Positions 1-19,558 are shown, counted from the stretch's first letter. The stretch is 64,000 nt of DNA from Candidatus Woesearchaeota archaeon (GCA_018302815.1 JAGVZE010000009.1:56149-120148); one strand, 5' to 3'. A program made the numbers and translations. The notes: generated from the sequence alone by a model not told the origin.

Positions 1-54
1 GTAATTTTTGCCACAAGCCAACAGGAAATCGTCGCGAAAGAACTAATAAAATTC

Positions 55-360
55 ATGGCCTCCAAAAAAGGAGAGATAGACAAAACAACCATGAGCGAGT
101 TCGCCACAAAACTGCACGACGGCAACTACGAATGCATCCTAGAAGAAGCGCCCTACAAAGGAAAACGCGTCAAGCTATCATATAACAAACGACAATTCTA
201 CGACAGAATATTGACGCCGATGAAAGCCATGGGACTTATCGACTACGACCTGTACAAGAAAACATACAGAATCAGCGTCAAATTCGCGCAAGACCTTGCG
301 AAAATAGGCGCGATGTGGAAAGAAAAATGCAGACAAATGGGCATCCACGATTCCCAGTAA
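55..360 (+). CDS. hypothetical protein (possibly winged-helix-like)
   Basis: 101-aa ORF at the window start with a basic C-terminal half. No recognised motif. Confidence 0.3.
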   Translation: MASKKGEIDKTTMSEFATKLHDGNYECILEEAPYKGKRVKLSYNKRQFYDRILTPMKAMGLIDYDLYKKTYRISVKFAQDLAKIGAMWKEKCRQMGIHDSQ

Positions 361-392
361 ACTTTAAAAACCCCCATTCTAGGACTCGGATT

Positions 393-698
393 ATGAGCGA
401 AGACAAGTATGCATACGAAAAACCAAGCGCGCTGACATTCCATCTTGAAACAGCACTCAAGCTATACAGAAAATGCCAAGAGATGGAAATACCCGCGCAA
501 CTGCGAGAGATAGCGCTGGACCACGACCACATTGAAGCGTTTGAATCGCTAAGGCAGCTCGTCCAAGACGAACTACACAGACCATTTGTTTCGGCATTCT
601 GCTGCAGGTTCCCGCTACGAGAATACAGCACCATCCCCGACATAGAACTTTTGCGATTCGCGCTGCAACTCGAAGACAGACGCTGGTACAGATTCTAG
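393..698 (+). CDS. hypothetical protein
   Basis: Start taken at the internal Met (MSEDKY) of the 315..698 ORF to avoid overlap with the upstream ORF. No motif recognised. Confidence 0.25.
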   Translation: MSEDKYAYEKPSALTFHLETALKLYRKCQEMEIPAQLREIALDHDHIEAFESLRQLVQDELHRPFVSAFCCRFPLREYSTIPDIELLRFALQLEDRRWYRF

Positions 699-843
699 AT
701 TGTAAAACGGCTGGACGGCAGGCACGGACGCCCGGAGGACGGCTTGTCGACGGGACGGATTGACGGCAGAATAGAAGTCGGCTTACCGGCAGGAGGGTGG
801 ACGGAATGACTATAGATGACGTTAAACACCGCAAGTTTTAAAT

Positions 844-1131
844 ATGTTTAAACATAAACATACGTTCATGGCAGTCAAGACTATAACCGTGACCACAAAA
901 GCATACGAAGCCGTTAAAGGACTCAAACGCCACGATGAGAGCTTCAGCGAGCTGTTCACCAGAATAGGATACAAACGCGCAACATTCGACACTCTGCGCG
1001 GAGCGCTCAAGACGACGCCCAAGGAAGCGGAAGACTGGCACAAGAGACTGCGCGCCATCCGCGAAGAAATGAGCAAAGACATGGAGGAAAAGATAGAACG
1101 TGTACGTACTCGACTCAAGCGCACTCATTGA
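844..1131 (+). CDS. vapB: VapB-like antitoxin
   Basis: 95 aa. N-terminal 'KTITVTTKAYEAVKGLKRHDESFSELF' matches the archaeal antitoxin family that pairs with PIN toxins. Overlaps the downstream PIN gene by 32 nt. Confidence 0.55.
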   Translation: MFKHKHTFMAVKTITVTTKAYEAVKGLKRHDESFSELFTRIGYKRATFDTLRGALKTTPKEAEDWHKRLRAIREEMSKDMEEKIERVRTRLKRTH

Positions 1132-1477
1132 AGGAATAATCGACGGACCGCGCTCTCAACCTATCAGCGACTCGCTCACAGAGGAAGAATTCCTCACCAC
1201 CAGCGTCTGCGTGCACGAAATCCTCATCGGGGCGCGAAACAGCGCAGAACTATTCGTCCTCAAAGGCATACTCCACGCAGTTCCAACGCTCGACTACACA
1301 AAAGACTGCGCCGTCCACAGCGCGCAAATCGAACGTGAACTCAAGCGCGAAGGAAAACTCATCAATAAAATGGACATCCTCATCGCGGCCATCTGCAAAG
1401 CAAGCAATGCCACACTCATCACCCTCGACAAAGACTTCGAGAAGATAAAAGGATTGAAAGTGAAAGTTATCAATTGA
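1100..1477 (+). CDS. vapC: PIN-domain toxin VapC
   Basis: 125 aa. 'YVLDSSALIEGI' N-terminal PIN motif with acidic residues at the usual positions (D..E..D). Translationally coupled to the upstream antitoxin. Confidence 0.75.
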   Translation: MYVLDSSALIEGIIDGPRSQPISDSLTEEEFLTTSVCVHEILIGARNSAELFVLKGILHAVPTLDYTKDCAVHSAQIERELKREGKLINKMDILIAAICKASNATLITLDKDFEKIKGLKVKVIN

Positions 1478-2071
1478 TTATTTCTTGTTTCGTCCGCGAG
1501 ACTGCACGACCTTCAAACGCTCAAGAACTTCACTTGCATTTGGATTAGAATGACTGTAGCCTTTGATTATAAGATTGAAACATTCCTCATGGACATCATA
1601 ATGCCTGCTCTTTATGGCGTCGTGCAACACGTGCAAATCAACAGCCTTGTCCTCGACCTTCTTGCTGATGAAACTCAAACCGAAATCAATGACTGAAACA
1701 ACATCTTCATGCACGAGCAGATTTGATGTCGTAAGATCGCCGTGGACTATGTCGTTCGTGTGAAGTTTTCCCACAATCTTTCCTATCTGCTCGGCGAAAT
1801 GAACGTGATTGTCAAGAACGTCGCGCAGTTTCTTTCCCTGCACAAAAGACATCTCAACTTCCATCGTCTTGTCATCCATATCCAAAAACTTCGCAGAAGG
1901 AATGCCAAGCGCGTTCACCTTCTTTAGAATCGAGGACTCTCTTCGCGTGCGCTGCCTTCGCAATCTCTCATCAAGAACAGCAACACGATAATCTTTCTTC
2001 AAACGCTCCTTTACAACAACACCATCATGCTCAACAACAACCGCTTCCGCGCCACGGCCAAGAATGTTCAT
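1478..2071 (-). CDS. bud32: Bud32/Kae1-associated serine/threonine kinase (KEOPS subunit)
   Basis: 'ILGRGAEAVV' glycine loop and 'HGDLTTSNLLV' catalytic loop are typical of Bud32/PRPK. The start is taken at the internal Met (MNILGRGAEA) of the 1478..2125 ORF, which places it just downstream of the S3Ae stop. Confidence 0.75.
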   Translation of the reverse strand: MNILGRGAEAVVVEHDGVVVKERLKKDYRVAVLDERLRRQRTRRESSILKKVNALGIPSAKFLDMDDKTMEVEMSFVQGKKLRDVLDNHVHFAEQIGKIVGKLHTNDIVHGDLTTSNLLVHEDVVSVIDFGLSFISKKVEDKAVDLHVLHDAIKSRHYDVHEECFNLIIKGYSHSNPNASEVLERLKVVQSRGRNKK

Positions 2072-2078
2072 ACTAGAA

Positions 2079-2792
2079 TTAAGCCTGCAAAGGCTGCTCG
2101 GACGCCTGATCGAGCGGCTGTTCATCAGCTTGCTGCTCTTCCTTGCGCTTTGGCATCTTGATTTCAGGAAGCTTGTCAGGAGGCAAAGTAATCTTCAAAC
2201 CAAGCTCTTTGACTTTTTCAACAGGAATCACTTCAAGCATACGAATCTCGCACGCACCCACCGGATAAAGCCTGCGAAGCAATTGAGAAAGGCTTGACTG
2301 AAGCTTCTTTTGAACAATATCACGAATAAGAGTGTCGATATCAGACTGAGAAATAACCTTTGCTATAAACGCGCGCTCAAGCTTCTGCATAGTCGCAAGA
2401 ACGCTGCCAGTCGTGTTGCCTCGAGTCACTATGAGAGGCTTAATACGAATAATCTTCTTATCAGCACTTTCGACAATGAAAGAATCCTCTATCTTATTTC
2501 GCTTGCGACGCATCATCTTCTTTGCGGCCGCAGGAAGAAGCCTGTAACCAGTAAGCTCGGTCGTAACCATATCATTTTGGACGCCGACAATCTTGAAAGA
2601 AACACTGACATTCTGCTTTTGAGGATCGCCAGTCAAAACCATAAGGCTAACAGAAACGCACCTGCCGACAAGGTTGGCAGGTTCCTCGACAAAAGACTCG
2701 CCCAAAAGCTGATCGTTGAAAAGCTTAGGCGCAATAATCGCTACCCAACGCTTTTTTTTAATAATGACTGCTTTCGCAGGAGCTTTTACCAT
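2079..2792 (-). CDS. rps3ae: 30S ribosomal protein S3Ae (eS1)
   Basis: 'KKKRWVAIIAPKLFN' N-terminus and overall length and composition typical of archaeal S3Ae. Acidic low-complexity C-terminal tail. Confidence 0.8.
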   Translation of the reverse strand: MVKAPAKAVIIKKKRWVAIIAPKLFNDQLLGESFVEEPANLVGRCVSVSLMVLTGDPQKQNVSVSFKIVGVQNDMVTTELTGYRLLPAAAKKMMRRKRNKIEDSFIVESADKKIIRIKPLIVTRGNTTGSVLATMQKLERAFIAKVISQSDIDTLIRDIVQKKLQSSLSQLLRRLYPVGACEIRMLEVIPVEKVKELGLKITLPPDKLPEIKMPKRKEEQQADEQPLDQASEQPLQA

Positions 2793-2985
2793 AACGCGAA
2801 CAACACAGCAGGGGGTTTATAAACATTGCGGTCTCAGGCACGGAAGACGGCGGGACGGACGACGGTAGGAAGGCTGGACGGCACGAAGGTAAGACGGAAG
2901 ACGGATGAACGGCAGACGGAAGACAAATGCCTGCTGAACAAAATGTGTCACAATAGTTAAATGCGCAATTGCCCGAAAACAAATC

Positions 2986-4833
2986 GTGAGTTTGAAGAAA
3001 GCAAAAGAATTCCTCAAAAACGCAACCATCGCAGCAGCGCTTTCACTTGGCATCACATCAACTTCTAAAGCACAAGAAACACCCGCACCCGACGTACACG
3101 CCCACGCGAGCGCACACGGATTCGCAGGAGACACACAAGGATTCGGCGCAAGCCTTGACCTTCGAGACAACGACCTTGGAATACGAATAGACTACGCAGG
3201 CTCGCGCGAGTATCCCTTGAGAGAAGAATTCGCAAGCGCAGAAATCAACCTCTACGACATTTACGCAGGAGGCGGAGCGCTAGGAGAAAAATGGGGAGCT
3301 TACGCGGCATACCGCCCAGATTTTCGACTTGGAAACGACACAATCGCTTTGAACACCACGCTAAACCTGAGCGTTGGATACGGAAATGACAACTATGATA
3401 CGCAAGCGCTAACTTCCAAACTATACGCCGCAGGACTTGGCGCGCGCCTAGAACTTGACATCAACCCCTGCAGTTTCATCAACACAAAAATCGGAGCGTT
3501 CATCGAAGGATTCTCTGCAGTCCCGGACGATATCGCATACCAGCCACGCGACATCAACAACAAAAAACACAGATACGAATATTTATCGACAATACTCTCA
3601 CTCTCAGAAGCACGCGCGGGAGCTTACGCCGAAATAAACGCGGCGCTCTATCAAGACAAAGACTCAATAACTCTTCTGACTTTGCGCCACATCGCAGAAA
3701 ACGTACAATGGGACCTGAGCGTTCCAGCACTTCCCAACCTTGAAATAGACTATTTCGAAGACTTTGACATAGAGCCTTACGCAATACGCCACATCACCCG
3801 CGCAGAAATCACCCACGAAAGAAGATTCGGCCCGCTGCACTTTCTTGTCGGACTATTCGCCCAGCACACAATGGGCAGCAGAACATTCGAAACACCCCTG
3901 CACAGAAACGGATTCTCAACAGGAGCCACTTTGCTCTTGGATTACGGCATCGCCGACCTTAGACTCGAAGGAGAAATCTATTCCGCATCACAACTGCGAG
4001 AATACACAAGAAAAGAACCGCGCGCATCAATGCTAGCAGAACTCGGACTATCATTCGGAGGCGAAGAAAACGCCCTTCGCGCATTCACAGGAATCGCAAT
4101 CAACAGGTCGCGCGACGCATTCACGGGTCTTGCACAGGAAGGAACACTATTCTACGCAGGCCTCGCATACGAATTTGGCGCAAGCAGATGCAGATACGAC
4201 GCAGTTGACAACGCGAACATTGTACGCAGCACTTCTGAACGACAATTATACGCCGCGTGGCAAGCGCAAAACGCACCGCCTCAATCGAATGAGCCGAACT
4301 ACGGCGCAATCGTAAGAGAACGCCCAACCACGCCAATCACCATCACGCGCGACGAAGCACAAACCCTCCTTGATGTATTCCGAGGAAAAAAACCATTCAA
4401 CGACGCAAAAACAGTCATCACGCGCAACTCTGACCTCAACCGAATAATAGATGTAGACGCGCTCGAAAACATCTACAACCTAACAGGAAACTTAGACGAA
4501 GGACCAACGAGAGAAGGCATACAAGACAATCTACTAGAATCAGACATGCTCGTAGGATATTCCCAAGAAAACACCACTGTCAACATCTTCAACAACGCCG
4601 CAAGAGAAGACCTTGAACACACAGTCGAAGACGGCATCGTCCTTAGCATAACACCAAACAAAAGCGCGAGAGAGTTAATGGCATCACAAAGAAACAGCAG
4701 AGCGACACTCGTGCTTGGAAGAGACATCTATACTTTAAGAGCGCCCTCGACAGAAGCGTTCATGCGCCTCTTAGGCTATCGAAGCCTTGTAAGCGACCTC
4801 ACTGAACCTCGATTCGAGTTCAGACTACGCTGA
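2986..4833 (+). CDS. secreted protein of unknown function (signal peptide)
   Basis: 615 aa. N-terminal signal-like segment 'KNATIAAALSLGITSTSKAQE'. Rich in G/A/Y/N/D, as in surface proteins. No catalytic motif. Confidence 0.5.
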   Translation: MSLKKAKEFLKNATIAAALSLGITSTSKAQETPAPDVHAHASAHGFAGDTQGFGASLDLRDNDLGIRIDYAGSREYPLREEFASAEINLYDIYAGGGALGEKWGAYAAYRPDFRLGNDTIALNTTLNLSVGYGNDNYDTQALTSKLYAAGLGARLELDINPCSFINTKIGAFIEGFSAVPDDIAYQPRDINNKKHRYEYLSTILSLSEARAGAYAEINAALYQDKDSITLLTLRHIAENVQWDLSVPALPNLEIDYFEDFDIEPYAIRHITRAEITHERRFGPLHFLVGLFAQHTMGSRTFETPLHRNGFSTGATLLLDYGIADLRLEGEIYSASQLREYTRKEPRASMLAELGLSFGGEENALRAFTGIAINRSRDAFTGLAQEGTLFYAGLAYEFGASRCRYDAVDNANIVRSTSERQLYAAWQAQNAPPQSNEPNYGAIVRERPTTPITITRDEAQTLLDVFRGKKPFNDAKTVITRNSDLNRIIDVDALENIYNLTGNLDEGPTREGIQDNLLESDMLVGYSQENTTVNIFNNAAREDLEHTVEDGIVLSITPNKSARELMASQRNSRATLVLGRDIYTLRAPSTEAFMRLLGYRSLVSDLTEPRFEFRLR

Positions 4834-5014
4834 TTAAACGGCAAGACAGAGGTAGGAAGTAGGACGGACGACGGATGAACGTAGGATGGAAGACTGCGGG
4901 ACGGAAGGATAGCTTATGAACAGCATAACTACTTACTTTCGAACCACCGCGTTACAGACTTACAGCCAATCACAAACCGTCACATTTATAAACCACCCCT
5001 TATCCAATCAGACT

Positions 5015-5209
5015 ATGGGACGAATCAAAACACAGCTCATCAAGAGATTGACCAAAGACATAATCAAGATGAGCAAGCCTGAACTCGGACAAGAATTCGA
5101 GCAGAACAAGAAAGTAGTCGCAGAACTCATCAGCGGAGCCAGCAAGAAAATACGAAACTCCGTCGCAGGCTACGCAACCCGATTGATGAAAGTCAAAGAA
5201 GAATACTAG
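5015..5209 (+). CDS. rps17e: 30S ribosomal protein S17e
   Basis: 'MGRIKTQLIKRLTKDIIKM...' matches the S17e N-terminus (MGRVRTKxVKR...). Start taken at the internal Met at 5015 rather than the listed ORF start at 4916. Confidence 0.75.
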   Translation: MGRIKTQLIKRLTKDIIKMSKPELGQEFEQNKKVVAELISGASKKIRNSVAGYATRLMKVKEEY

Positions 5210-5217
5210 TTTTCTGC

Positions 5218-5232
5218 AAACCTTTTTATACG
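5218..5232 (+). promoter_or_regulatory. putative archaeal TATA box/BRE upstream of the tRNA
   Basis: 'aaacctttttatacg' lies about 28-35 nt upstream of the tRNA 5' end at 5258, the usual spacing for archaeal promoters. Confidence 0.4.
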
Positions 5233-5257
5233 CTCATAGATGAGTTTCTTTTCAAAC

Positions 5258-5371
5258 GGGCCTGTAGTCTAACGGATAGGATACAGGGCTTCGGACAGCG
5301 CCCTGCGATGATATGAGCACAAGCGTTGGCTAAGACACCCTGCGGTCTGGGTTCGAATCCCAGCAGGCTCG
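5258..5371 (+). tRNA. tRNA-Arg(TCG) with a 42-nt intron at the canonical 37/38 position
   Basis: The acceptor stem GGGCCTG/CAGGCTC pairs with one G-U. The T-arm is CTGGG-TTCGAAT-CCCAG. The anticodon loop is CTTCGGA (U33, anticodon TCG, purine 37). An approximately 42-nt insertion (5295-5336) lies between position 37 and the 3' anticodon stem CCCTG and can form a hairpin, consistent with a bulge-helix-bulge intron. No encoded CCA. Confidence 0.65.
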
Positions 5372-5372
5372 T
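5355..5372. repeat. attL: tRNA 3'-end core sequence 'gaatcccagcaggctcgt'
   Basis: This 18-mer recurs at 18608-18625. A 16-nt subset recurs at 18480-18495, and a 10-11 nt core recurs at 19559-19569. Confidence 0.7.
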
Positions 5373-5433
5373 AGTAATTTTTCTACTAATACCACAGGAA
5401 GGTTTATAAGCAACGCATCGACCCAGACCCGCC

Positions 5434-6717
5434 ATGAGACCATTTATCGACCAAAACAAGCGAGTCACCCAAAACCTCACCAGCCTACAAAAAAACGAAG
5501 CCATCAGCCCACAAAACAAGAAAGAGATAGCAGACATGGCTCGCAAGATGTCAAGCGAAGGACTCGCACCCGCAAGCATCGCCAAGTTCATAACGACATT
5601 CCACAACGGACTCGACAAGTGCGCACCGCCCAATTTCAACATGGCGAGCGCAACAGTAGATGAACTGCGCGAGTTTATCATCAACATCCAAAAATCAAAG
5701 TACAGCATCAAGACACAAGCCGAGATAAAGAAAGCCATCAAGAAATACTACAAGGGCAACGATAAGGAGCACCTTGTCAAATTCTTCAAGACAAGCATTC
5801 CGCAAAGCAAGAAGACAGTTCCCAACGAGGGAGATATGTTGACTCTAGAAGAGGTTGAGCGAATGATAACTGCTTGCAAAAATACCCGTGACAAGGCTAT
5901 CATCTCTCTCCTTGCTGAAAGCGGTATGAGAATAGGCGAGCTTGGCGCGCTTCAAATCAAACACGTCAATTTTGACAATCATGGCGCGGTTATCACAGTT
6001 CCTTCTGGAAAGACAGGAGCTAGGCGCATTCGTGTAGTTCAGTGTGAGCGTCACTTGCGTCAATGGTTGATGGACCACCCACACAAAGATAACGATGAGG
6101 ATTGGTTGTGGATAAACTTGAACGCAAGCCAGAAAAGCGCGCTCTATGATAGAATGGATTACGAGTGTATCCGCATGATGATTGTTAAGAAAGCGATAGA
6201 CGCGCAAGTTAGAACATACAAAGTACGAACTGTTGAAGATAAGAAGAGTCATAAACTTAGAGATGTTTATCGTACAAAGGTTCACCCGCACTTGTTCAGA
6301 CATACTGCCGCGACTCGGCTTGCCAAGTTTATGACTGAGCAACAACTCAAGATTTATCTTGGGTGGACTGCGGGTAGTGATATGGCGAGCGTGTACGTTC
6401 ACTTGTCTGGTAAGGATGTTGATGATACCGTGTTGAAGATGAACGGGTTGCAACCAATGGAAACGCAGGTTGAGAGCGTGCGGTGTCAGGCTTGTGGTAG
6501 GATGAATGCGTCTGAGAGTTCTTCTTGTAACACTTGTTTTAGACCTTTGAGTGTTAAAATGGCTTTGGTGAATGAGGAGCGTGAGAAGCACGCTTCGAAA
6601 GTTTTGGAAGCTATCATGTCAGGTGAGTTGAGTGTTGAAGAAATCAAGGCGTTCACATCAAAGCAGAAGAAAGCGAAAGTTTTTATCGAGCAACCAACTA
6701 ACGAGGGGTTAGTATGA
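5434..6717 (+). CDS. int: tyrosine recombinase/integrase
   Basis: 'HLFRHTAATRLA' is the HxxR box and '...ASVYVHL' the catalytic Tyr region. 'ESGMRIGELGALQ' is the Arg-I region. The C-terminus carries a CxxC...CxxC zinc-ribbon extension. Located next to a tRNA. Confidence 0.85.
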   Translation: MRPFIDQNKRVTQNLTSLQKNEAISPQNKKEIADMARKMSSEGLAPASIAKFITTFHNGLDKCAPPNFNMASATVDELREFIINIQKSKYSIKTQAEIKKAIKKYYKGNDKEHLVKFFKTSIPQSKKTVPNEGDMLTLEEVERMITACKNTRDKAIISLLAESGMRIGELGALQIKHVNFDNHGAVITVPSGKTGARRIRVVQCERHLRQWLMDHPHKDNDEDWLWINLNASQKSALYDRMDYECIRMMIVKKAIDAQVRTYKVRTVEDKKSHKLRDVYRTKVHPHLFRHTAATRLAKFMTEQQLKIYLGWTAGSDMASVYVHLSGKDVDDTVLKMNGLQPMETQVESVRCQACGRMNASESSSCNTCFRPLSVKMALVNEEREKHASKVLEAIMSGELSVEEIKAFTSKQKKAKVFIEQPTNEGLV

Positions 6718-6880
6718 AGAAAGAAATGCCTGTTTTGAATTTGAGACTGCTCGGAAAGACTTTCCGAATTTTCACATACGAAACATTGATGCGCAGGAAC
6801 AAACTCTGAACTTTGTATGGGTAGCTCGCAATAAAACGCTGACATAAGTATATATTTCAAAGCCCTTAACAGTTTGATAC

Positions 6881-9800
6881 ATGGTTGTTCCCAGTCTCCA
6901 GAATTATTCTATTGAGCGTTTGAATAAAGAAATCGCTCAGAACCAGCAACTTATCAGTGAATTACGAGGTCGTGCTGGTCAAGCTAAACGGATTGAGGGC
7001 GCGTCAAAAGGAATTCAACTTCTCCAACTTGAACTTACTTCTCGTCAGATTCAGCAACAGGCGGACGAAGGCATTATTTCTCAAGCTCAAGCTTCGGGTT
7101 TGATACAAGCTAGAGCGTCCAGCACACAAGCGAGTACGAAGCAAGCACCACTAAGCCCTTACGAACGCGCATTCGGACCCGCCAGCTTAACACGACAAGC
7201 AATATTAGCAAAGCCAACAGCACTGCAACAATTAGGCGGTGCGCCGTCACAAATCCAATTCCAAACCATCCCCCGAGAAGTGACATACAAAGTTGGAGAG
7301 CGATTCGGCGAACCAGTCCTAGTCACGCGAAGAGAACAAGCAACGCAAGCACTCCTGCCGTTCGGCAAACTTCAATTCGGCATTCCAGCAAGCCTAGCAT
7401 TCAGCCAAAAAGCACAGCTTGAAGGCATCCCCACCATCACAGACACCAGAGGTATCACCTTAACCGAACAGGGCGAGTTACGCGCTCGCCCAACAACTCG
7501 TTTCGAAAGCCAAACAGAAAAACAACTCCGAGAACAAGTACCGATGGCAAACCGAGCAGTGTTCGAAGCAGACATAACAAAAGAACCTCGCATTCCAGCA
7601 CGAGTCTTAACAGAAACAGAACAACGCGCACTCTTCGCGCCAGCATTCCAAACCAAAGCGAGCATACTAAGCCCACTACTCCAACGACGAGTGGAAGAAC
7701 TTTCACAACCAGAAACCCAACGACCATCCCCTTTCATAGAGCCAACACCAGAAGTGGGGTTGAGTTTTGATTTTCAAAGACAAATACTTGCAAGCCTGCC
7801 TCGACTTGTTGAGCAAACCGCGCAAGAACAAGGCATCACTCCACTCACCAAGTTCACTCGTAAAACTGATTTTTTCAACGCAAAAGAGTTCGGTGGTGAA
7901 ATTCGAAGCATCAGCGAAGAAGTAAATAAAGCCGTTGATTTTGAAAAACTCCTCGCGAAAGCAGGCATCAAAACATCAATACCAAGCAAGGCGATAAGTT
8001 TTGAAGAGTTCAAACTCGTCCCCCTCGTCAAAAAAATAACTCGACCAGAAGAAACTCGACAAAAGCTTCTCAAAGACATTGAGCAAACAGAAAAACTATC
8101 ACCTGCTCTTGCTAAGATAGAACGAGCGTTTGCAGATATTGAGTTCGGAGCGAGAGAGTACGCGAGCAGACCCAGCAACATAGCACTGACCGCCCTTACT
8201 GGTGGAGCGTTCGGACTTGCAGAAAAAGGCGCGCTGGCTGGACTGACTATTTTCAAAGGCGCAACACAAGCCGAAAAAGCGATAAGTAACATTAACAAAA
8301 TACTTCTTGGAGCAACAGCAGGACTTGAAGGTTTACGCATAGCGACAAGCAAGAAGCCTTTTGAAGAAGTCGGAGCCTTGCCATTCAAGCTCATCGCGTT
8401 TGGCGCAGGAGCACAAGCGACGAAAACACTTCTCACACGACAACCTTCAAGGGTTCAAGTTGGTGAGACTTTAATTTTGGAAAAACAAACCATTCCAACA
8501 AGCGAAGGACTGGTTCAAGTCCGAGGAACAGCTATCACTCCTGCTAAAATAACTAGAGTCAGCCCGATAGAAAAAATGTTGACAGACTTACGGTTCAAAC
8601 TCGAAGTTGGAAAAACAGAAGAGTTCAAAATCGTCCGACAGTTCAAAGGAGAAATCAAAATTGCTCGAGAAGAAAAAGTTGACTTGTATGGAGGTGGCAA
8701 AATCGTAAGTGAGAACTTGCGAATAGCAAAAGTCAGCGCGGAAATATTCTCGCAAAACTTGAAAGGCGAACTCGCAAAGTTCGCAGAACAATTAGCTGTT
8801 ATAACCTCATCAGGTCCGTCGGGAGCGAAGGCGTTAGGACAACTAAGAATTCGACGAGTGCGAAAAGGAAAACTCACGCAGAGCATTTTTGAACAAATCG
8901 CGGACATCCAACCATCAGAGATAGGGGGGGTTAGGGTTGTTACTGGAACTGCGAGGCTTCCAGCGATAAAAGGAAAAGTCAGGCGAGAACAGCCTTTCTT
9001 TGAAATTGGCGCGGTTGAAAAGTTCAAACCGCCAAGCCGTCAAAAAATTACTGACATTTTCGAAACAAACATTCGAGAACTGGCAGACAATCTTGACGCG
9101 AGCCTAAGAACTTTAACATTGAAGGAGACACCGCCGCGCAAGCCGTCCAAAAAAACAGTTGAAGAACTATTATCAATACTCCCTCAAGAAAGAGTTTTTT
9201 TCCGTGCGCGAAAAAGAGAAATAACGGCACGACAATTAGAAAAACGTTTCAAAGGAGCCGTTGTTAAACTCCCAAGTAAAGGAGCTTTCAAAGACGCATT
9301 AACTAGAGCGTGGGGCAAAAAAGGACAGTTCATTTTAGGACAGCCGAGTCGCATATCGACAGGCATCAGTCCACGCCCTGCGATAGAACCTGAATCGTTG
9401 AAAGTGAGCATTGATAGAGCACTCTCGCCGTTCCGAACGTTTCAAGTCCCGAAACAAGCTCTTTCACTAGCGTTCGAAAGAGATGTTAGTTTCACCACGC
9501 TCGCGCCAACACAAATTGAAAGAATAGCTCCTTCCAGACTAGCTGAACTTCCCAGACTGCAAACTCGAACGCTTCAAGATGTTGGAACTCAAACTGGTAA
9601 CGCTATCGCAACAATCGTTCAAGGCTTGGAAAAAACTTTGACAGGAACCAAGCCAATAGAAGGCATCAAAATTAAGACGATAACAGGACCGACAGCGCGA
9701 CCGATAGAAATAACCACGCCAGTCACAGGCGCAGGAACAGGAACCACTCCAGCCACAACGCCAAAAGAAGGAACAACCCCCAGACCACGAGGCGAGACAG

Positions 9801-10156
9801 GAACAGGCTTCCAGTTCAGAGAACGACCTTTCGAACCGCCAACACTTCCACTTTTTCCGCCTTTCTTTTTAGGAGGCGGTGGCGGTAGCGAAGAGAGAAG
9901 ACAACAACAACGCTATCCTAGAGCACCAACTCGTCGCGCTCCTAGTTTGTTGGGCTTGTTTTTAGGCAAAAAAGGAATACCGAAAGGAAAACTCACTGGG
10001 CTGGAAATTCGAGGTTTACCAAGAAGCGTTCGGCGCAAACAGTTCGAAATTGAAGGGCGAGACAGGCTTGACTTTGGAATATTAGAACGCAATTTGAAAA
10101 AAGCTTTGGGTATCTCAAAAGTTAAAAAAGGAAAGAGAGGTAAGAAAAAACGATGA
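6881..10156 (+). CDS. large low-complexity protein of the integrated element (candidate structural or DNA-binding protein)
   Basis: 1091 aa. The N-terminus is coiled-coil-like. The protein is rich in Q/T/E/K/R/P. The C-terminus has a TPxTTP stretch, a GGGGGSEERRQQQR segment and a strongly basic tail (KVKKGKRGKKKR). No TM segment and no enzymatic motif. Confidence 0.5.
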   Translation: MVVPSLQNYSIERLNKEIAQNQQLISELRGRAGQAKRIEGASKGIQLLQLELTSRQIQQQADEGIISQAQASGLIQARASSTQASTKQAPLSPYERAFGPASLTRQAILAKPTALQQLGGAPSQIQFQTIPREVTYKVGERFGEPVLVTRREQATQALLPFGKLQFGIPASLAFSQKAQLEGIPTITDTRGITLTEQGELRARPTTRFESQTEKQLREQVPMANRAVFEADITKEPRIPARVLTETEQRALFAPAFQTKASILSPLLQRRVEELSQPETQRPSPFIEPTPEVGLSFDFQRQILASLPRLVEQTAQEQGITPLTKFTRKTDFFNAKEFGGEIRSISEEVNKAVDFEKLLAKAGIKTSIPSKAISFEEFKLVPLVKKITRPEETRQKLLKDIEQTEKLSPALAKIERAFADIEFGAREYASRPSNIALTALTGGAFGLAEKGALAGLTIFKGATQAEKAISNINKILLGATAGLEGLRIATSKKPFEEVGALPFKLIAFGAGAQATKTLLTRQPSRVQVGETLILEKQTIPTSEGLVQVRGTAITPAKITRVSPIEKMLTDLRFKLEVGKTEEFKIVRQFKGEIKIAREEKVDLYGGGKIVSENLRIAKVSAEIFSQNLKGELAKFAEQLAVITSSGPSGAKALGQLRIRRVRKGKLTQSIFEQIADIQPSEIGGVRVVTGTARLPAIKGKVRREQPFFEIGAVEKFKPPSRQKITDIFETNIRELADNLDASLRTLTLKETPPRKPSKKTVEELLSILPQERVFFRARKREITARQLEKRFKGAVVKLPSKGAFKDALTRAWGKKGQFILGQPSRISTGISPRPAIEPESLKVSIDRALSPFRTFQVPKQALSLAFERDVSFTTLAPTQIERIAPSRLAELPRLQTRTLQDVGTQTGNAIATIVQGLEKTLTGTKPIEGIKIKTITGPTARPIEITTPVTGAGTGTTPATTPKEGTTPRPRGETGTGFQFRERPFEPPTLPLFPPFFLGGGGGSEERRQQQRYPRAPTRRAPSLLGLFLGKKGIPKGKLTGLEIRGLPRSVRRKQFEIEGRDRLDFGILERNLKKALGISKVKKGKRGKKKR

Positions 10157-10674
10157 GTGTTAGCTGGCTGAGCAGAATGCTTGCAGTGGCTGCGAAAGAT
10201 GAACTTGTCCTAGCGCAAGCTAAGAAAAACAAGCTCACAATTTATGGTGCTAGAGCGATTCAAAAGCGTTTGGGTTTTTTGAGCCGTCCAACTTATGACT
10301 ATGATGTTTCAGCACGACATCCACAGCGTGAAGCTCGCTTGTTGGAAAAACAGCTTGACAGGATTGCTCAGGGTGACTTGTTTTTTTCGCGTCCGAGCGA
10401 GTTTCATAAAGGAACGCACAAAGTTATTTATGCAGGCTGGGACAACAAGCGAGAAACGAAAGATGACGTTGGCATCGCAGATTTTTCTCGCACTGGAAAA
10501 ATTTGCAGTCAAGCGATAGACGGAGTGAGGTACGCTTGTTTGTCAGCAGTCGAAAAGGACAAGCGCAAAGCGTTATCAAGCAAAGAGTTCGCTTTCAGGC
10601 ATAAGAAGGACGCTGAAGACCTAGAACGCATCAAAATTTACAAGCGAACGTTTGGGTACAGGAGGCGACGATGA
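10153..10674 (+). CDS. hypothetical protein (element)
   Basis: 173 aa. ATGA-type overlap with the upstream gene. Basic C-terminus. Confidence 0.4.
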   Translation: MSVSWLSRMLAVAAKDELVLAQAKKNKLTIYGARAIQKRLGFLSRPTYDYDVSARHPQREARLLEKQLDRIAQGDLFFSRPSEFHKGTHKVIYAGWDNKRETKDDVGIADFSRTGKICSQAIDGVRYACLSAVEKDKRKALSSKEFAFRHKKDAEDLERIKIYKRTFGYRRRR

Positions 10675-10970
10675 AAGACGTATCAATGGATGATTTGAAA
10701 AAAACAAGAGAACTTCTATCAGGCGGAAAAGACAGCGATGATGTGTTAGTCATCCAACTCGCCGTCACAAAACAGGGCGTTGCGGTTCACAGTCTAAGCA
10801 AAATATCGAGTGAACAATACGCCAGCGCGCAAAACGTCGCACAACCAGTAGGTGATGAGGACTGGTCTAGCTTTGAAGAAGACACCGATGAGCCAATGCC
10901 AGCCGTTCAAAACGTCAAACCACTAAGCAAAGCAAAACTCAAACTACAAACAACAAGCTATATTGGGTGA
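10671..10970 (+). CDS. hypothetical acidic protein (element)
   Basis: 99 aa. Overlaps the upstream stop. Acidic composition. Confidence 0.35.
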   Translation: MKDVSMDDLKKTRELLSGGKDSDDVLVIQLAVTKQGVAVHSLSKISSEQYASAQNVAQPVGDEDWSSFEEDTDEPMPAVQNVKPLSKAKLKLQTTSYIG

Positions 10971-10975
10971 AAAAT

Positions 10976-11251
10976 TTACTTTGACAAGTGCGCAGGCAGG
11001 TATTCTTCCATCAAACTAACTTTTTCAGCTATTTTTCTCGTTTTTCGCCAAAGAAGAAAACGTCTTATCCACAAAGGGTCCGTCCACCACTTCATTTGAC
11101 AATATTGATTGTTGAACGCGCTGATTTGTTCTTTGAAACGGGAATATTTATGGTGAATTGATACTTCAAACAAGCCAACAGCCAAGTTCCGCTTGTACTC
11201 GCGCCTCAAAGACGCAACATCGTGTTTGAGGCGTACTCGTGCCATATTCAT
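10976..11251 (-). CDS. hypothetical protein (element)
   Basis: 91-aa ORF, convergent with the plus-strand block. Confidence 0.3.
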   Translation of the reverse strand: MNMARVRLKHDVASLRREYKRNLAVGLFEVSIHHKYSRFKEQISAFNNQYCQMKWWTDPLWIRRFLLWRKTRKIAEKVSLMEEYLPAHLSK

Positions 11252-11401
11252 AAGAAGAACACCAAAATAAGGCAGTTAAAAACCTTTCGAGAAAAACAGC
11301 CCTTACAGTCCTTAATAGTGCTCTAATAGCACTAATAAGAAAACGTTTTTTCTTAACGACCGAAAGACCTAAAAAGAAAGACCCATCGCCAGAGTTTTAA
11401 C

Positions 11402-11563
11402 ATGGCGAAAAAACAAAACGAGTGCGAAAAACGAAACGGACACCGCTTTGACGGATCCAATGCGGACAGTGAGAGCTATGAAAACATGACACTAGAAGTG
11501 ACGTGTTTGGATTGCGAAATGCGATGGGTAGCGGAAAGCAACTGGGAACCTGTCAACGAATAA
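11402..11563 (+). CDS. small Cys/His zinc-ribbon-like protein (53 aa)
   Basis: Read by hand from the sequence: MAKKQNECEKRNGHRFDGSNADSESYENMTLEVTCLDCEMRWVAESNWEPVNE. It has C..H...C..C spacing. It is below the 60-aa cutoff of the ORF track. Confidence 0.25.
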   Translation: MAKKQNECEKRNGHRFDGSNADSESYENMTLEVTCLDCEMRWVAESNWEPVNE

Positions 11564-11589
11564 AACCTTGAATACAAATTCAAAGGCAG

Positions 11590-11612
11590 TTTTTTTTCTT
11601 TATTTTCATTTA
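11590..11612 (+). terminator. T-rich tract (candidate archaeal terminator)
   Basis: 'gttttttttctttattttcattt' lies downstream of the small plus-strand ORF. Confidence 0.25.
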
Positions 11613-11637
11613 CACCAAAACAAACGTCCCTTTAACA

Positions 11638-12174
11638 TCAGGGTGTGCTGGTTGAGGAGTCCAAAACCACACCCCCCTTTTCCTTCTTGGGACGACCACC
11701 TCGCCATTGACCAATGTTGCGTCTTCGCTGAATGCCTGCTTTAGTACGCTCGCTTATCTTGCGCCGTTCCTCGCTCGCCGACCACGCCATGATAGAAAGA
11801 ATCACGTCACCTATCGGGTTATCATTCCCAGTATCAAGCCAGCTTTCCGTAAGACTCTTAACGCCCACGCCGCGCTCTCTGAGCTTCTGCACGCGCCCAA
11901 CAGCGACAAACATAGGCTCACGGCTGAACCTGTCGAACTTCCATACCAGAATGGCTTGGAAGCGTAACAACATCGCGTCTTGAAGCATCTGTCTGAACTG
12001 TGGACGGTTTGGGTCCGCACCACTTCCCCTATCAACGTACTCGTTCACTATTTGCCATTGCTTGTTAATTACCCATTGCCTTAACGGTTCAAGTTGGTTC
12101 TCTGGCTCTTGATACCTGCGGTCTTCTTTGTTTGTCTCATCCAAACTCACGCGAGCATACAAACAAACCTTCAT
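11638..12174 (-). CDS. serine recombinase (resolvase/invertase catalytic domain)
   Basis: 'CLYARVSLDE' carries the YARVS nucleophile motif near the N-terminus. The resolvase-fold length is about 140 aa, followed by a short basic 'GRPKKEKGG' tail. The HTH domain is reduced or absent. Confidence 0.65.
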   Translation of the reverse strand: MKVCLYARVSLDETNKEDRRYQEPENQLEPLRQWVINKQWQIVNEYVDRGSGADPNRPQFRQMLQDAMLLRFQAILVWKFDRFSREPMFVAVGRVQKLRERGVGVKSLTESWLDTGNDNPIGDVILSIMAWSASEERRKISERTKAGIQRRRNIGQWRGGRPKKEKGGVVLDSSTSTP

Positions 12175-12189
12175 TTCGGGTTACACCTG

Positions 12190-12262
12190 TTCTTAACGTA
12201 TCTTTGGCAGGCGTAACGCCACGCTAATAACGCTAATAAGCCTGAAAACATCGCTAATAAGA
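12190..12262. repeat. iteron-like direct repeats CGCTAATAA x3 plus the inverted repeat GGCGT-A-ACGCC
   Basis: 'ggcaggcgtaacgccacgctaataacgctaataagcc...atcgctaataag' lies in the intergenic region between the serine recombinase and the ATPase gene. Confidence 0.5.
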
Positions 12263-12277
12263 AAAACAGCGCGACAA

Positions 12278-13207
12278 TCAAGCAGTATCACCGCCCGTCA
12301 TCCCTGACTTTTCCCGTTCTGATTCTAGGTTACTAACAGTATGAACGCCAACCATTGAGTCTTTGAAACGTGATATTGTACCCTGTACCATGTCTTTTGA
12401 CACTTTTTCACCAGAAAACTTGCTCAAAGCCAATGCTAACTGAGGTTGAGTCCAGCCTTTCTCACTCAAAACCACCATCAAGCTTCCCAAACGATTCAAA
12501 AGCTTCTGAGCAAACTTGTCAGGCTTCTTATCAAGCATCGCCAGCGCGTCAAGCTTACGCCGTTCATACTCTGCGTCATCGAAAGGAAAGAACTTTGTGA
12601 ACGCATCTCGAAAGTCGGGCTGAATGCGCGACGAATAATCCTTTTTGCCCGCAAGGTACAAGCTTTGCTTTCGAGGATACGAGTAAAACTTGAAGAAACC
12701 ACGTTGCAAACGTGTCCCTGCTGGTTTGGTGTACACTTCAATCAAACAACGACTACGATACACCGCGAGATACTTGTCAACCTCGAAAAAGTTTGCGATG
12801 CAAAACAACAAGATGAGTTGTCGGCTCCTGCAAGTTGTCAAAAGCCAAACGAGCCTTTTGTTTTCCGTGCTCATCGAGCCACGACTTGATGCTGTTGCGT
12901 ACGCTTCATCAAATAGTATCACGGTGAACGGCGGAGCCTTCAAAACTAATCTTTGCAAGCTTTCAAAGTCATAACATAAACTTTCAAGCGTGAACGTTGG
13001 CGTTCTTTTGTATCCTTTGCTGATAGCGATGCTTTCACACAACGTGCCCACTTGACAAGCCAGAGTGCTTTTGCCTTCGCCCTCACGACCGCTGAACAAA
13101 AGCACGCCGTCAAACTTATCCGCGACAAGCTCAACAACTGCGTTAAGATTACTGAACAGGTATCCTGAACAGTATACCTCTTGCCCGTTGTGTAATTTTG
13201 TTTTCAT
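12278..13207 (-). CDS. P-loop NTPase (Walker A GREGEGKST, Walker B ILFDEAY)
   Basis: 309 aa. Walker A and Walker B motifs in an AAA/Zot-like arrangement. Located in the mobile element, so possibly a packaging, replication or partition ATPase. Confidence 0.55.
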   Translation of the reverse strand: MKTKLHNGQEVYCSGYLFSNLNAVVELVADKFDGVLLFSGREGEGKSTLACQVGTLCESIAISKGYKRTPTFTLESLCYDFESLQRLVLKAPPFTVILFDEAYATASSRGSMSTENKRLVWLLTTCRSRQLILLFCIANFFEVDKYLAVYRSRCLIEVYTKPAGTRLQRGFFKFYSYPRKQSLYLAGKKDYSSRIQPDFRDAFTKFFPFDDAEYERRKLDALAMLDKKPDKFAQKLLNRLGSLMVVLSEKGWTQPQLALALSKFSGEKVSKDMVQGTISRFKDSMVGVHTVSNLESEREKSGMTGGDTA

Positions 13208-13605
13208 TTCAGCATCGCAACGCTCGGGTTCTCCAGCTCACTCATCAACAAGCCATGTTTTTGCATCAAGTCCCGCAAGAGTTTTTCAAAACTATCAATG
13301 GCTTTGTACGCTTCAAAACCTTTCAGTCCAGTTTCGTGATTGCGCTGGTCGGGGTTACGTAAGCGTAAGACACCATTATAAGCGTTGGTCTTGCGTTGCG
13401 CTTCTGTCTCACTATCACTTGCGCGCTGGCGTTCTTCAACGTTCAAGAAGGGGTATAACTCGCGGTGAACGCTTGTGAGCGTTTGATGCCATTCGGGGAA
13501 CTTTCTCGCAGTCGAACACTGGTTTGACAGCTGTAGGAGCTTGTCAATTCTTTGAAGCGTTGCCTGCGCGCTATTCCAAGAGCTTATACCAAAATCAGCA
13601 CTCAC
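13204..13605 (-). CDS. hypothetical protein (element)
   Basis: 133 aa. Overlaps the neighbouring gene by 4 nt. Confidence 0.35.
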   Translation of the reverse strand: MSADFGISSWNSAQATLQRIDKLLQLSNQCSTARKFPEWHQTLTSVHRELYPFLNVEERQRASDSETEAQRKTNAYNGVLRLRNPDQRNHETGLKGFEAYKAIDSFEKLLRDLMQKHGLLMSELENPSVAMLK

Positions 13606-13991
13606 GAGAAGCTCAAACCTCGGCGAGTTGTTTTTTTATCTTGCGAATTTTGCCCGCGTATTTTGAAGATATTTTTTTCATCTGTCGTCACCTCTTCTTT
13701 TCTTTTAGGAGTAAAATATCCATTCACGTCCTTACCGCATCGCTCGCCTCTGGGAAGAATTCTCAAACGAACACCACCACACTCGCACTGAAGCGCAAAA
13801 GTTTTCATACAAGAAAAACAACCAGCCCAACGGCTTTCGTAAACAATGATGCTCTTGTGGTAACTCTTCGGCGGAACCTTTCCGCAGTGCCTGTGCTTGT
13901 CAACGTAACGGCTTCGCAGAACTGGCTTGTTGCAAAAACGGCACTGCCTAAGAGAAGTTTGATGCACGAGTTCATACTTTGCGCGAGTCAT
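13602..13991 (-). CDS. Cys-rich zinc-finger protein (element)
   Basis: 129 aa with several CxxC / C..H..C clusters. Confidence 0.4.
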   Translation of the reverse strand: MTRAKYELVHQTSLRQCRFCNKPVLRSRYVDKHRHCGKVPPKSYHKSIIVYESRWAGCFSCMKTFALQCECGGVRLRILPRGERCGKDVNGYFTPKRKEEVTTDEKNIFKIRGQNSQDKKTTRRGLSFS

Positions 13992-14636
13992 TCAAACACG
14001 ACCGCGATGTTTTGCGAAAGACGCTTCAAGCTCTTCGGGTGAAAGTTCAGTTGCAGAGTCGAACATCACCATGAAGTCCTGCGGGGTCATCGCCATAAGT
14101 CGGTTCCATGTCATGTTGTCTGCGAGTGGTGGTCCAATGATGAACTTGTTTTTCGGCTGGAATTCGGGCTTGCGAAACCATATCTCGCACATCTGACAAA
14201 CGTTGTGGCGTTTGCAGAATAACCACTGCGTCCCCATGAGACCACAGAAATAACAAAGCTCTTTCGGCTTAACTTCATCGCGTTCAAAAAGACTCATTCT
14301 CTTTCTCCATGTGGCGATGTCTTCAGGTGAGAGTTTGAATTTATAGTTTTGCTTATGACAGTGCGAGCCTCGCAAGCTGGTCTCTTCCGAAGTCATGCCA
14401 ATATCTGCGCCGTGAACGTGCTGCCTTTTGCAGAACGGGCAGTCCACTTGAACGCGGAAGAACCGCGAGCCGTCAAACGCCGTTTCAAGCCCAATGATGC
14501 GCGCTATCACTACAAAAACGCTTAATTGTTCGGCTCTTATAAACCGCCCGCAACACGCGCAATTCTCTGGCGGTTCGCCCTTCATACAGTACGGGTTTGC
14601 GCAATCTCGCTCGCATGGACAACCACTCATTTTCAA
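13992..14636 (-). CDS. Cys-rich protein (element)
   Basis: 214 aa with more than 20 Cys in CxC/CxxC arrangements. Confidence 0.4.
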   Translation of the reverse strand: MKMSGCPCERDCANPYCMKGEPPENCACCGRFIRAEQLSVFVVIARIIGLETAFDGSRFFRVQVDCPFCKRQHVHGADIGMTSEETSLRGSHCHKQNYKFKLSPEDIATWRKRMSLFERDEVKPKELCYFCGLMGTQWLFCKRHNVCQMCEIWFRKPEFQPKNKFIIGPPLADNMTWNRLMAMTPQDFMVMFDSATELSPEELEASFAKHRGRV

Positions 14637-14778
14637 AACACCTCTCTTTTTTGTTTACGAATGAAACGTCGCGCTCTGGTAAGCTCTCTGTGCAACGAAG
14701 ACAGCGCGGTAGCGTTCTCGGCTTCAAGTTGTACGAACAAGCGGTTTAAACCACTACTGCGCTGTTTAAAACCCGTAT

Positions 14779-15765
14779 TCATAATTTATCCCTCATTGCG
14801 ATGAACTGAAGTACGCGGTACGGTACTTTGTCTTTTTTCCCGCAAAGACCGCGATGCCACGCCTGCTTGACGGCGTGATAAAGTGCTTCATCGTTACCTT
14901 CGTAACGGCTTCGCCCGCCATTATGCGGCGTGCCTGCGTCTTCGCAACCCAAAAAACCACTCTCAACACAAAGATATTGTTGCGCGTTCAATGACACAAT
15001 GTGTCGCCAACAATGCCCCAAGCCCCCACTAACGCTCCAGTTTTTCCCCGTGTTTTCGCTTCCATGTAAGGGGTGCGGGACTCTGCCACCCTTCAAACCC
15101 GCAGAGCACACGTCCCTGATTGTTAATTCATAAAATGCACTTTTACGACCCCCCTTCTGATAAGTTCGCGGAACAGGCGCAGTTCTCTCAAGCTCGATGT
15201 TTTCCTGATGTCTTTCGCGGAATACGGGCGGGAGTTCATCGAAGGTGATGTTTGTAGGCATCGTTGCGACCTCAACAGTGTAACGTCCCGCGCTCGCTTT
15301 CAGCTCTTCAGGTAATGTGTTGATGTGTTCTTGGCTTCGCGGAACGTAACTGCCAGCGCAGACGACGTACTGCCAAATCGACCTGACTTCCCCTGACCCG
15401 CCTGTTGGAATGTTCGGTATCTTCTTACCTTCTGGCTGAAAATAGAATGCGTGAAAACCAACGCGCTTACTCGAACGGCTCGTCAAGGTCGGCTTCAATT
15501 TTTCCAACGGTGTTTTCTGGATGTCATCAACGTCAACGATGACCAGCCCGTCAAGGTCAGTCCCCGCTATTCCGATGTTGTATCCCACCTTCAAAAGTTG
15601 AACTGCCTGCTGAACTGTCAGCCTCGCTTTTTTCCACGAACCACTCACGCATGGGTCTTTGCCATTCTTCAACAAGCGGAACAAAAACGGTTCGTATGTC
15701 GCAGGCATTCCCTGTTTCAGGAGCGTGATGAACTTCAAAAACTCATCAGGACACGTCGCATTCAT
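14779..15765 (-). CDS. bifunctional primase-polymerase (PrimPol-domain) protein
   Basis: 'DLDGLVIVDVDD' resembles the PrimPol catalytic D.D motif region. Translationally coupled to the upstream D5-like helicase by a 4-nt overlap. Confidence 0.55.
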   Translation of the reverse strand: MNATCPDEFLKFITLLKQGMPATYEPFLFRLLKNGKDPCVSGSWKKARLTVQQAVQLLKVGYNIGIAGTDLDGLVIVDVDDIQKTPLEKLKPTLTSRSSKRVGFHAFYFQPEGKKIPNIPTGGSGEVRSIWQYVVCAGSYVPRSQEHINTLPEELKASAGRYTVEVATMPTNITFDELPPVFRERHQENIELERTAPVPRTYQKGGRKSAFYELTIRDVCSAGLKGGRVPHPLHGSENTGKNWSVSGGLGHCWRHIVSLNAQQYLCVESGFLGCEDAGTPHNGGRSRYEGNDEALYHAVKQAWHRGLCGKKDKVPYRVLQFIAMRDKL

Positions 15766-19539: not shown

Positions 19540-19558
19540 GAGTTATTCTACAAAGCAC

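Follow-up and report, generated by a model that had tools for sequence, protein, structure and literature searches.

GACGG-type tandem repeat arrays beside promoters of a Candidatus Woesearchaeota archaeon, putative sites for an oligomerising DNA-binding protein

What are the purine-rich repeats that recur between genes in a stretch of Candidatus Woesearchaeota DNA? The stretch comprises 64,000 nucleotides (nt) of this DPANN archaeon (GCA_018302815.1 JAGVZE010000009.1:56149-120148) and is called the window here. An original prediction, made from the sequence alone, had described a dispersed repeat family in three of its intergenic spacers and had suggested a G-quadruplex, a small non-coding RNA or a protein-binding array. 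The S3Ae protein of the window was identical to NCBI protein J4219_04070, and contigs near-identical to the window originated from Rifle-type groundwater metagenomes. The analysis covered ~75 kb of the window genome and 11 kb of a second lineage with such arrays (loci L013, L097 and L098, GCA_016203305.1). The repeats form tandem arrays with a 7-8 nt period upstream of promoters, and arrays of the same kind occupy matching positions in the second lineage. We tentatively read them as DNA sites for a putative oligomerising protein.

Anatomy and enrichment of the arrays

Three arrays were found in the window, and a fourth lay in the same genome outside it. Positions are those of the window unless a locus is named.

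707..810, plus strand: array 1, with about 12 units of the form GG..GAC, 7-8 nt long and some longer; G 42%, purine 65%
2835..2924, plus strand: array 2, with 11 consecutive 7/8-nt units (GGAAGAC GGCGGGAC GGACGAC ... GGAAGAC)
4838..4912, plus strand: array 3, with mixed GTAGG and GACGG units, starting 4 nt past the stop codon of a gene for a 615-amino-acid (615-aa) protein
4913..4973, plus strand: A/C-rich segment, present together with array 3 and without similarity elsewhere
2110-2185 of locus L014: array 0, 2.6 kb left of the window, between the divergent promoters of ThrRS and ORF192

The arrays consisted of 8-17 head-to-tail units, and all units within any one array shared their orientation. 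The unit was a conserved 5-nt core, GACGG (in a minority GTAGG or GAAGG), with 2-3 variable bases, which gave a period of 7-8 nt. The units read GG-(2-3 variable nt)-GAC, and the GACGG core straddled each unit junction. The core consensus was G-W-M-G-G, represented by GACGG here and by GAAGG or GTAGG in the L013 lineage. GGACGG had been proposed as the iterated word; it was present, but the real unit was the 7-8 nt repeat around the 5-nt core.

Array 1 began 9 nt past the stop codon of the open reading frame (ORF) 393-698 and ended ~25 nt before the TATA-like box of vapB. Array 2 occupied the space between the divergent promoters of the 615-aa gene and S3Ae, began 11 nt away from the TATA box of S3Ae and contained an unbroken chain of 11 GG units (2842-2924). 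Tandem Repeats Finder (TRF) reported AAGACGG x4.7 at 2891-2924 in this array and, with relaxed scoring, 11.3 copies with period 8 over 2840-2924 (consensus unit ACGGAAG). Array 2 also contained an internal duplication of ~54 nt. Array 3 had the 19-nt word GGAAGTAGGACGGACGACG in common with the array outside the window, and words of 13 and 12 nt in common with array 2. The autocorrelation of the window arrays peaked at lags 4, 7, 8, 11 and 15 (z = 3-4), and the units were only 55-80% matched by TRF.

The long words reported for the three spacers were all recovered. GGACGGACGACGG occurred only at 2853 and 4862, which is 2 matches against 0.04 expected from dinucleotide shuffles with 1 mismatch allowed. 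GACGGATGAACG was found at 2900 and 4870, with a single isolated match at 18262, and GACGGATTGACGGCAG began at 754 in the first spacer. In the 64 kb, 18 of the 46 plus-strand copies of GACGG fell inside the three spacers, which total ~270 nt. The pair GACGG-N2-3-GACGG was found five times in the window, always on the plus strand and always in these spacers, against 0.13 expected. Only 707-810, ~2833-2930 and 4838-4912 reached 4 copies of ACGG per 80 nt in a sliding scan of both strands, and there was no further similar array in the other 59 kb of the window. Chains of GG with 7-8 nt spacing and at least 6 units were confined to these arrays in the 64 kb and in 580 kb of relatives, and none was seen in shuffles. 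These scans of words, periodicity and spacers indicated that the dispersed family is genuine. A scan by composition alone for G-rich or purine-rich islands was uninformative, as it was swamped by coding sequence. In the literature search, no report of arrays of this kind was found for DPANN or any other archaea.

The enrichment was not a by-product of the purine skew of the strand. In the whole window the GC skew was -0.135 and the AT skew +0.139, independent of gene orientation, so that the G-rich arrays ran counter to a plus strand that is otherwise G-poor. This asymmetry, with a monotonic cumulative skew, suggests that the window belongs to a single replichore in which the plus strand is of the lagging type. 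Of the 27 intergenic spacers with a length of 60 nt or more, only the three array spacers were both G-rich and periodic (7/8-nt z ~4); their G fraction was 0.23-0.31, versus 0.07-0.25 in the others. Against dinucleotide shuffles of the arrays themselves, GACGG was present in 19 copies versus 5.2 expected (z = 7). GTAGG, TAGGA and GGAAG were likewise above these shuffles (z ~7), and GAAGG and GTAGG were enriched in L013. The genome was highly compact, and its median intergenic distance was 8 nt. The arrays were non-coding, as had been proposed, because the indels between relatives (15 and 20 nt) were not both multiples of three.

Promoter geometry and orthologous arrays

The promoters next to the window arrays were as follows.

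2816..2823, minus strand: palindromic TATA box TTTATAAA of S3Ae, within the conserved motif TTTATAAACCCC
2941..2967, plus strand: conserved block that contains the 615-aa promoter, with the TATA-like box ATAGTTAAAT (2953-2962) ahead of the GTG start codon (2986)
836..845, plus strand: TATA-like box TTTTAAATAT of vapB (ATG at 868), assigned from spacing only
4985..4992, plus strand: TATA box TTTATAAACC of S17e (start at 5015), with the same promoter and start in the L095 orthologue

The arrays lay upstream of promoters with a B recognition element (BRE) and TATA box, outside the 5' untranslated regions (UTRs). All four arrays fell within 7.6 kb, and the distance from array to TATA box was 5-73 nt. 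The S3Ae and ThrRS arrays of both lineages ended 7-27 nt from the TATA boxes, and the sense strand of these genes was the C-rich strand. The S3Ae start codon was ~25 nt downstream of its TATA box. Because TATA boxes were ~25 nt upstream of start codons, the mRNAs are probably leaderless. In the window and related loci together, the motif TTTATAAACCCC stood ahead of genes of the ribosomal-protein type at 29 sites. The arrays had been described as lying immediately upstream of plus-strand genes. This was true only loosely, since a promoter intervened between each array and its gene, and array 2 and the array outside the window abutted the promoters of the minus-strand genes S3Ae and ThrRS. In the case of S17e, the start had been placed at 4916; the real ATG is at 5015, and the mechanical ORF 4916-5209 was over-extended.

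Relatives were collected in two ways: 80 loci were fetched via the conserved ORF135 anchor, and closer relatives via S3Ae. The main scan covered ~580 kb of these related loci, and nine loci were added later. Array-like sequence in the ~580 kb was found only in the lineage of the window genome itself and in the L013 lineage. The later loci added only array 2 in L094 and L013-lineage arrays in L097. In the L013 lineage three arrays were present, one upstream of S3Ae, one right after the ORF135 stop codon and one upstream of ThrRS. These positions matched arrays 2, 1 and 0 of the window genome, respectively, with different genes on the far side, and S3Ae was only 65% identical between the two lineages. 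The L013 contig ended ~55 nt from an array. A search with ThrRS returned no relative between 99% and 64% identity.

The L013 arrays had a strict 7-nt period with the heptad G-W-A-G-G-N-N (lag-7 z = 5-6, lag-14 z ~4). The information content at the seven positions of 31 L013 heptads was 1.29, 0.83, 1.79, 1.45, 1.01, 0.16 and 0.07 bits. The window and L013 arrays were treated as one family, because a single base separates GACGG from GAAGG, and GTAGG and GAAGG also occur in the window arrays.

The spacers of closer relatives were also compared, and the arrays were patchy among close strains. In L095 and L096, S3Ae was 93% identical to that of the window genome, and four-fold degenerate sites were 30-57% different. 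Array 2 was present in both, ~60% identical and 32 nt shorter. Compared with L095, the promoter blocks that flank it were identical at 40 of 41 positions on the S3Ae side and at 27 of 27 on the 615-aa side. Eight near-identical contigs, several from different samples, showed zero indels or mismatches in the arrays that they covered. Array 2 was also identical in L094. However, the perfect conservation of array 2 in L094 was ruled out as a sign of selection. It is part of a 596-nt tract (2763-3357) that is identical in the window and L094, while the flanks were 5-7% divergent in S3Ae and the 615-aa gene. This tract is, from its pattern of identity, a recent recombination mosaic, and so the identity of array 2 in L094 is silent on selection.

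The 17-mer CAAATGCCTGCTGAACA at 2924-2940, right after array 2, matched exactly a conserved coding segment in several relatives. The segment was read as ftsZ by eye, and the 17-mer had no counterpart in the L095 spacer. The match was judged to be chance, but it may instead be a captured fragment from elsewhere.

Surrounding genes and the integrated element

The genes around the window arrays were assigned as follows.

55-360, plus strand: C-terminal part of ORF135; no family in the Pfam scan of the left-end genes
393-698, plus strand: ORF 393-698
868-1131, plus strand: vapB (PF02697), by Pfam
1100-1477, plus strand: vapC/PIN, by Pfam
1478-2125, minus strand: Bud32-type kinase, by Pfam
2079-2792, minus strand: S3Ae, by Pfam
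2986-4833, plus strand: 615-aa protein, no family; its N-terminus resembles a signal peptide
5015-5209, plus strand: S17e, by Pfam
5258-5371: intron-containing tRNA, by Rfam (50.7 bits)
5434-6717: tyrosine integrase, adjoining the tRNA

The 615-aa protein was an ORFan. Its sole homologue among 5.8 billion proteins was the L095 orthologue, encoded by a 610-aa gene, with 70% identity, versus 93% for the neighbouring S3Ae. From this comparison it appears to be a fast-evolving surface protein. The full ORF135 gene was found in L001 (12433-12840, minus strand) and encodes 135 aa without family assignment. ORF135 was 79-81% identical across Woesearchaeota whose S3Ae was only 65-74% identical, and 295 related metagenome stretches were found. 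A weak winged-helix hint was obtained for it (MCM_C winged helix-turn-helix, E = 0.056). The tRNA was missed by ARAGORN at 5258-5371, where Rfam detected the intron-containing tRNA, and the same tRNA adjoined S17e in L095 and L098.

The 16 nt of the tRNA 3' end (ATCCCAGCAGGCTCGT) were repeated at 18480-18495. Together with the adjoining integrase, this makes 5357-18495 a probable integrated element of ~13 kb. In L095 and L098 the tRNA 3' end recurred 110-190 nt away from the tRNA, and this second copy resembles an att scar. The element contained a 21-nt AT-rich tandem repeat at 16128-16178 (96% matches over 2.5 copies) and, at 17650-17718, a run of the T-rich heptamer TCTTTTT x9. It also contained the heptamer repeat AAACTAC x3.9 at 10935-10960. 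The reverse complement of this heptamer, GTAGTTT, is the unit of the S3Ae-upstream array of L013, and the repeat is on the strand opposite to that of the studied arrays. Elsewhere in the window, a HicA toxin gene (43799-44032, Pfam E = 1.4e-18) was the second toxin-antitoxin-type gene, with SepF, L21e, Rpb4 and endonuclease V close to it. A 99-nt tandem repeat (36091-36295, 2.1 copies, 75% matches) was located within an 855-aa minus-strand ORF (35529-38096).

Possible roles of the arrays

We tentatively favoured the reading, possible rather than probable, that the arrays are DNA sites for a putative oligomerising DNA-binding protein. Among the ideas of the original prediction, a protein-binding array was the best fit to the core conservation, the spacing and the matching positions. 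The arrays would serve as multi-site landing pads for a putative sequence-specific protein. Each subunit or dimer would bind one core, and the protein would then polymerise along the array. Bound just upstream of the BRE/TATA elements, the protein would modulate or insulate the closely spaced promoters nearby, namely those of S3Ae, ThrRS, vapBC, the 615-aa gene and S17e. Segmental duplication and gene conversion may lengthen, shorten and spread the arrays.

Selection on a short motif with fixed spacing was suggested by the conserved cores beside free spacers and by the fixed period. It was also suggested by the same family at matching promoter-upstream positions in two diverged lineages, and by a G-richness that opposes the strand skew in arrays that persist in a spacer-poor genome. 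Under neutral decay of duplicated units, the seven positions of the heptad would all blur alike, and position-specific conservation therefore favoured sites. We infer that the protein would act on DNA rather than on RNA. The DNA level was more economical because 4 of the 7 arrays were upstream of promoters without a source of transcription in the G-rich sense, and because transcription through one orthologue would yield the C-rich sense.

Several observations weighed against this reading. The units of the window arrays were spaced unevenly, at 7 or 8 bp and in a few places further apart, which is awkward for strictly phased cooperative binding to DNA. The heptad registers of the information-content table were partly set by eye, while the periodicity statistics were register-free. 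The orientation of the arrays relative to the nearest promoter was not uniform. The strand that all arrays share was uninformative, because three are orthologous between the lineages and only one independent copy remains. Most promoters with TTTATAAACCCC had no array, and ~80 related loci had none. The divergence of array 2 from L095 was about that of four-fold degenerate sites, with indels of 15 and 20 nt. Array 3 and 61 further nt were absent in L095, where the stop codon of the 610-aa gene abutted the S17e TATA box. Array 1 and vapBC were absent in L096, where the Bud32 stop abutted that of ORF101b. A vapC at this place in L102 (48% identity), a more distant relative, suggests that the segment was lost in L096 rather than gained elsewhere. 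L100 (S3Ae 92% identical) lacked both array 2 and the 615-aa gene. L099, with the same S3Ae protein as L013, lacked the S3Ae array, and the homology ended exactly at the array start. L103 (ThrRS 99% identical), from the same sample as the window-strain contig L005, lacked the ThrRS array and had a different promoter and neighbour. The arrays are thus dispensable. In addition, no informative Pfam, NCBIfam or PDB match was obtained for the neighbouring small proteins, PDB sequence searches with VapB and ORF135 gave no candidate binder, and no obvious DNA-binding regulator or ParA was found by Pfam and NCBIfam in 30 further window proteins.

The main rival was that the arrays are functionless cryptic simple sequence, a filler remodelled by slippage, segmental duplication and ectopic gene conversion that persists briefly in each lineage. 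We regarded this as possible, if on the unlikely side. Its setting would be a recombination-prone, strain-variable region beside a tRNA integration site, and the 596-nt tract shared with L094 indicates local recent recombination. The presence of arrays differs between very close strains, homology breaks exactly at array edges, and most relatives have no arrays. The neutral-like divergence and large indels of array 2 also fit, and its ~54-nt duplication and the 12-19 nt words common to different arrays are what copy-and-paste predicts. However, conserved core positions beside randomised spacers, three matching positions in two distant lineages and a G-richness opposing the mutational skew of the strand would be left unexplained. 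Imperfect units are poor slippage substrates, and a genome with a median spacer of 8 nt should purge 100-nt filler. A role as recombination or cassette-boundary sites was also considered, in which the arrays would be recombinase targets or recombination stimulators that mark the 5' ends of exchangeable array-promoter-gene units. In five strain comparisons the boundary of the indel or replacement was an array edge, each array of the window genome preceded a plus-strand promoter and gene (ORF192, vapBC, the 615-aa ORFan and S17e), and the region adjoins the tRNA att site and integrase. We considered this very unlikely, since the arrays have no inverted repeats or hairpins, and the only linked recombinase is the integrase that targets the tRNA, with an att core unrelated to the arrays. 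No gene in the same sense follows two of the three L013 arrays, and array 3 was gained or lost without any gene. Edges at conserved promoters may merely mark where selection stops.

The co-orientation of the units within each array would also suit an element at the RNA level, in which transcribed arrays (3' UTR, intercistronic or divergent promoter-upstream RNA) bind a multimeric RNA-binding protein. TRAP binds (G/U)AG repeats, HutP binds UAG-N4 repeats, and CsrA binds GGA-rich sponge RNAs. The targets of TRAP and HutP and the CsrB and RsmZ RNAs resemble the arrays in having a short purine-rich core in many copies with short spacers of variable or fixed length; the period is 7 nt for HutP, and array 2 numbers 11 units. 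The variable 2-3 nt spacers suit ring-shaped RNA binders such as TRAP, and the L013 units, read as UAGGNNN, present UAG every 7 nt. Arrays 1 and 3 and the array after ORF135 in L013 start 0-9 nt after a same-strand stop codon and would thus be in a 3' UTR. On the other hand, those targets are in transcribed bacterial 5' leaders or small RNAs, whereas the arrays are mostly promoter-upstream, and in 4 of the 7 cases no gene or oriented promoter feeds the G-rich sense. The ThrRS array of the L013 lineage (L097 3801-3930) follows a same-strand gene and would be transcribed in the C-rich sense. No Rfam match or structure was found, and no TRAP-, HutP- or CsrA-like protein was detected among the 30 window proteins scanned. 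We therefore considered the RNA level unlikely. G-quadruplex DNA or RNA that affects transcription or replication appeared highly improbable. GG runs 5-6 nt apart make two-tetrad motifs formally possible (2-13 overlapping matches per array of the window genome), but there was no motif with G3 or longer runs. The G4Hunter mean was 0.5-0.7 and the 25-nt maximum 0.72-1.12, below 1.2, and the conserved core has non-G positions (A/C at positions 2-3) that a quadruplex does not require. Phase variation, in which copy number would tune the expression of the 615-aa surface protein, was scarcely credible. Heptanucleotide repeats do stand between divergent promoters beside a fast-evolving secreted ORFan, and the hmw contingency locus of Haemophilus influenzae offers a precedent with 7-bp tandem repeats in the promoter region of a surface-protein gene. 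However, the hmw repeats are perfect and vary in copy number between cells, whereas the units here are degenerate and the remaining arrays adjoin housekeeping genes. The invariance of the arrays among the eight near-identical contigs also disfavoured it, and array 2 was identical in L094.

Other candidates were tried and rejected. A small non-coding RNA family, one of the ideas of the original prediction, had no Rfam match and no significant fold. The Rfam searches (positions 1-20000 with E<=1; the window, L014, L095 and L098 with gathering scores) returned only the tRNA and one distant chance match, and folding z-scores of -1.68 to +1.17 on both strands indicated no stable structure. The arrays are not the leader targets of TRAP or HutP, as promoters are downstream of them and 4 of the 7 have no same-sense gene upstream. 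A CRISPR array, with identical repeats of 24-48 nt and unique spacers, does not fit contiguous units of 7-8 nt. Miniature inverted-repeat transposable elements (MITEs) and repetitive extragenic palindromic (REP) elements were rejected, since no inverted repeats were found within or flanking the arrays, there was no hairpin, and the right-hand ends were ragged. Mycobacterial interspersed repetitive units (MIRUs) are 40-100 bp long, and REPs are palindromic hairpins. These elements and bacterial interspersed mosaic elements (BIMEs) are, like the arrays, dispersed, lineage-specific and strain-variable intergenic repeats, but the units here are 7-8 bp without dyad symmetry. An archaeal origin with origin recognition boxes (ORB or mini-ORB) was rejected because the repeats are all direct, the cumulative GC skew is monotonic and no Orc1/Cdc6 was found among the annotated neighbours. 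H-DNA was rejected on inspection, as purine runs were at most ~8 nt. A contingency simple sequence repeat was rejected with units 55-80% matched and arrays invariant in the 8 near-identical contigs. A viral origin had no support. The fixed-gap scan GACGGNNGACGGNNNGACGG of viral contigs gave 120 loci, mostly high-GC chance matches, and the best look-alike (L215, the only one checked) was coding, inside a ribonucleotide-reductase-like ORF.

In the case of the putative DNA-binding protein, the closest formal precedent was the omega/ParB arrays of pSM19035. Its parS sites are runs of adjoining 7-bp heptads with one ParB/omega dimer bound to each, and activity requires no fewer than 4 heptads in an uninterrupted row (PMC9499535). 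Repeats of ~7 bp, with 7-10 or more per array and several promoter-upstream arrays within a few kb, are common to both systems, and here four arrays were found within 7.6 kb. In contiguity, the L013 arrays had strict 7-nt units, and the window arrays alternated between 7 and 8 nt with some larger gaps. However, the pSM19035 heptad WATCACW is well conserved and occurs in both orientations, whereas GACGG/GWAGG occurs in a single orientation with a 7-8 bp wobble. In addition, pSM19035 is a bacterial plasmid that encodes the ribbon-helix-helix (RHH) protein and ParA. The arrays are on an archaeal chromosome, no ParA or annotated RHH protein was found among the proteins scanned, and VapB (PF02697) adjoined array 1 only. 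Because no cognate protein or ParA was found, the orientation is single and the spacing wobbles, membership in the omega family cannot be claimed. A bolder version, which we considered quite unlikely, is that the arrays and a dedicated putative protein form an archaeal chromosomal counterpart of the omega heptads. They would then be either a small, lineage-specific regulon or organising centre, coupling the translation genes S3Ae, S17e and ThrRS with the accessory cassettes vapBC and the surface ORFan, or recombination sites at the borders of exchangeable array-promoter-gene cassettes in DPANN archaea.

The genomes of DPANN archaea are minimal, and their gene regulation is almost unstudied ground. 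A family of ~100-nt arrays at the promoters of translation genes in two lineages could expose a lineage-specific DNA-binding factor, and it could equally reveal gene-cassette exchange in uncultivated archaea. If the arrays were only filler, they would still mark a recombination hotspot that breaks metagenome assemblies.

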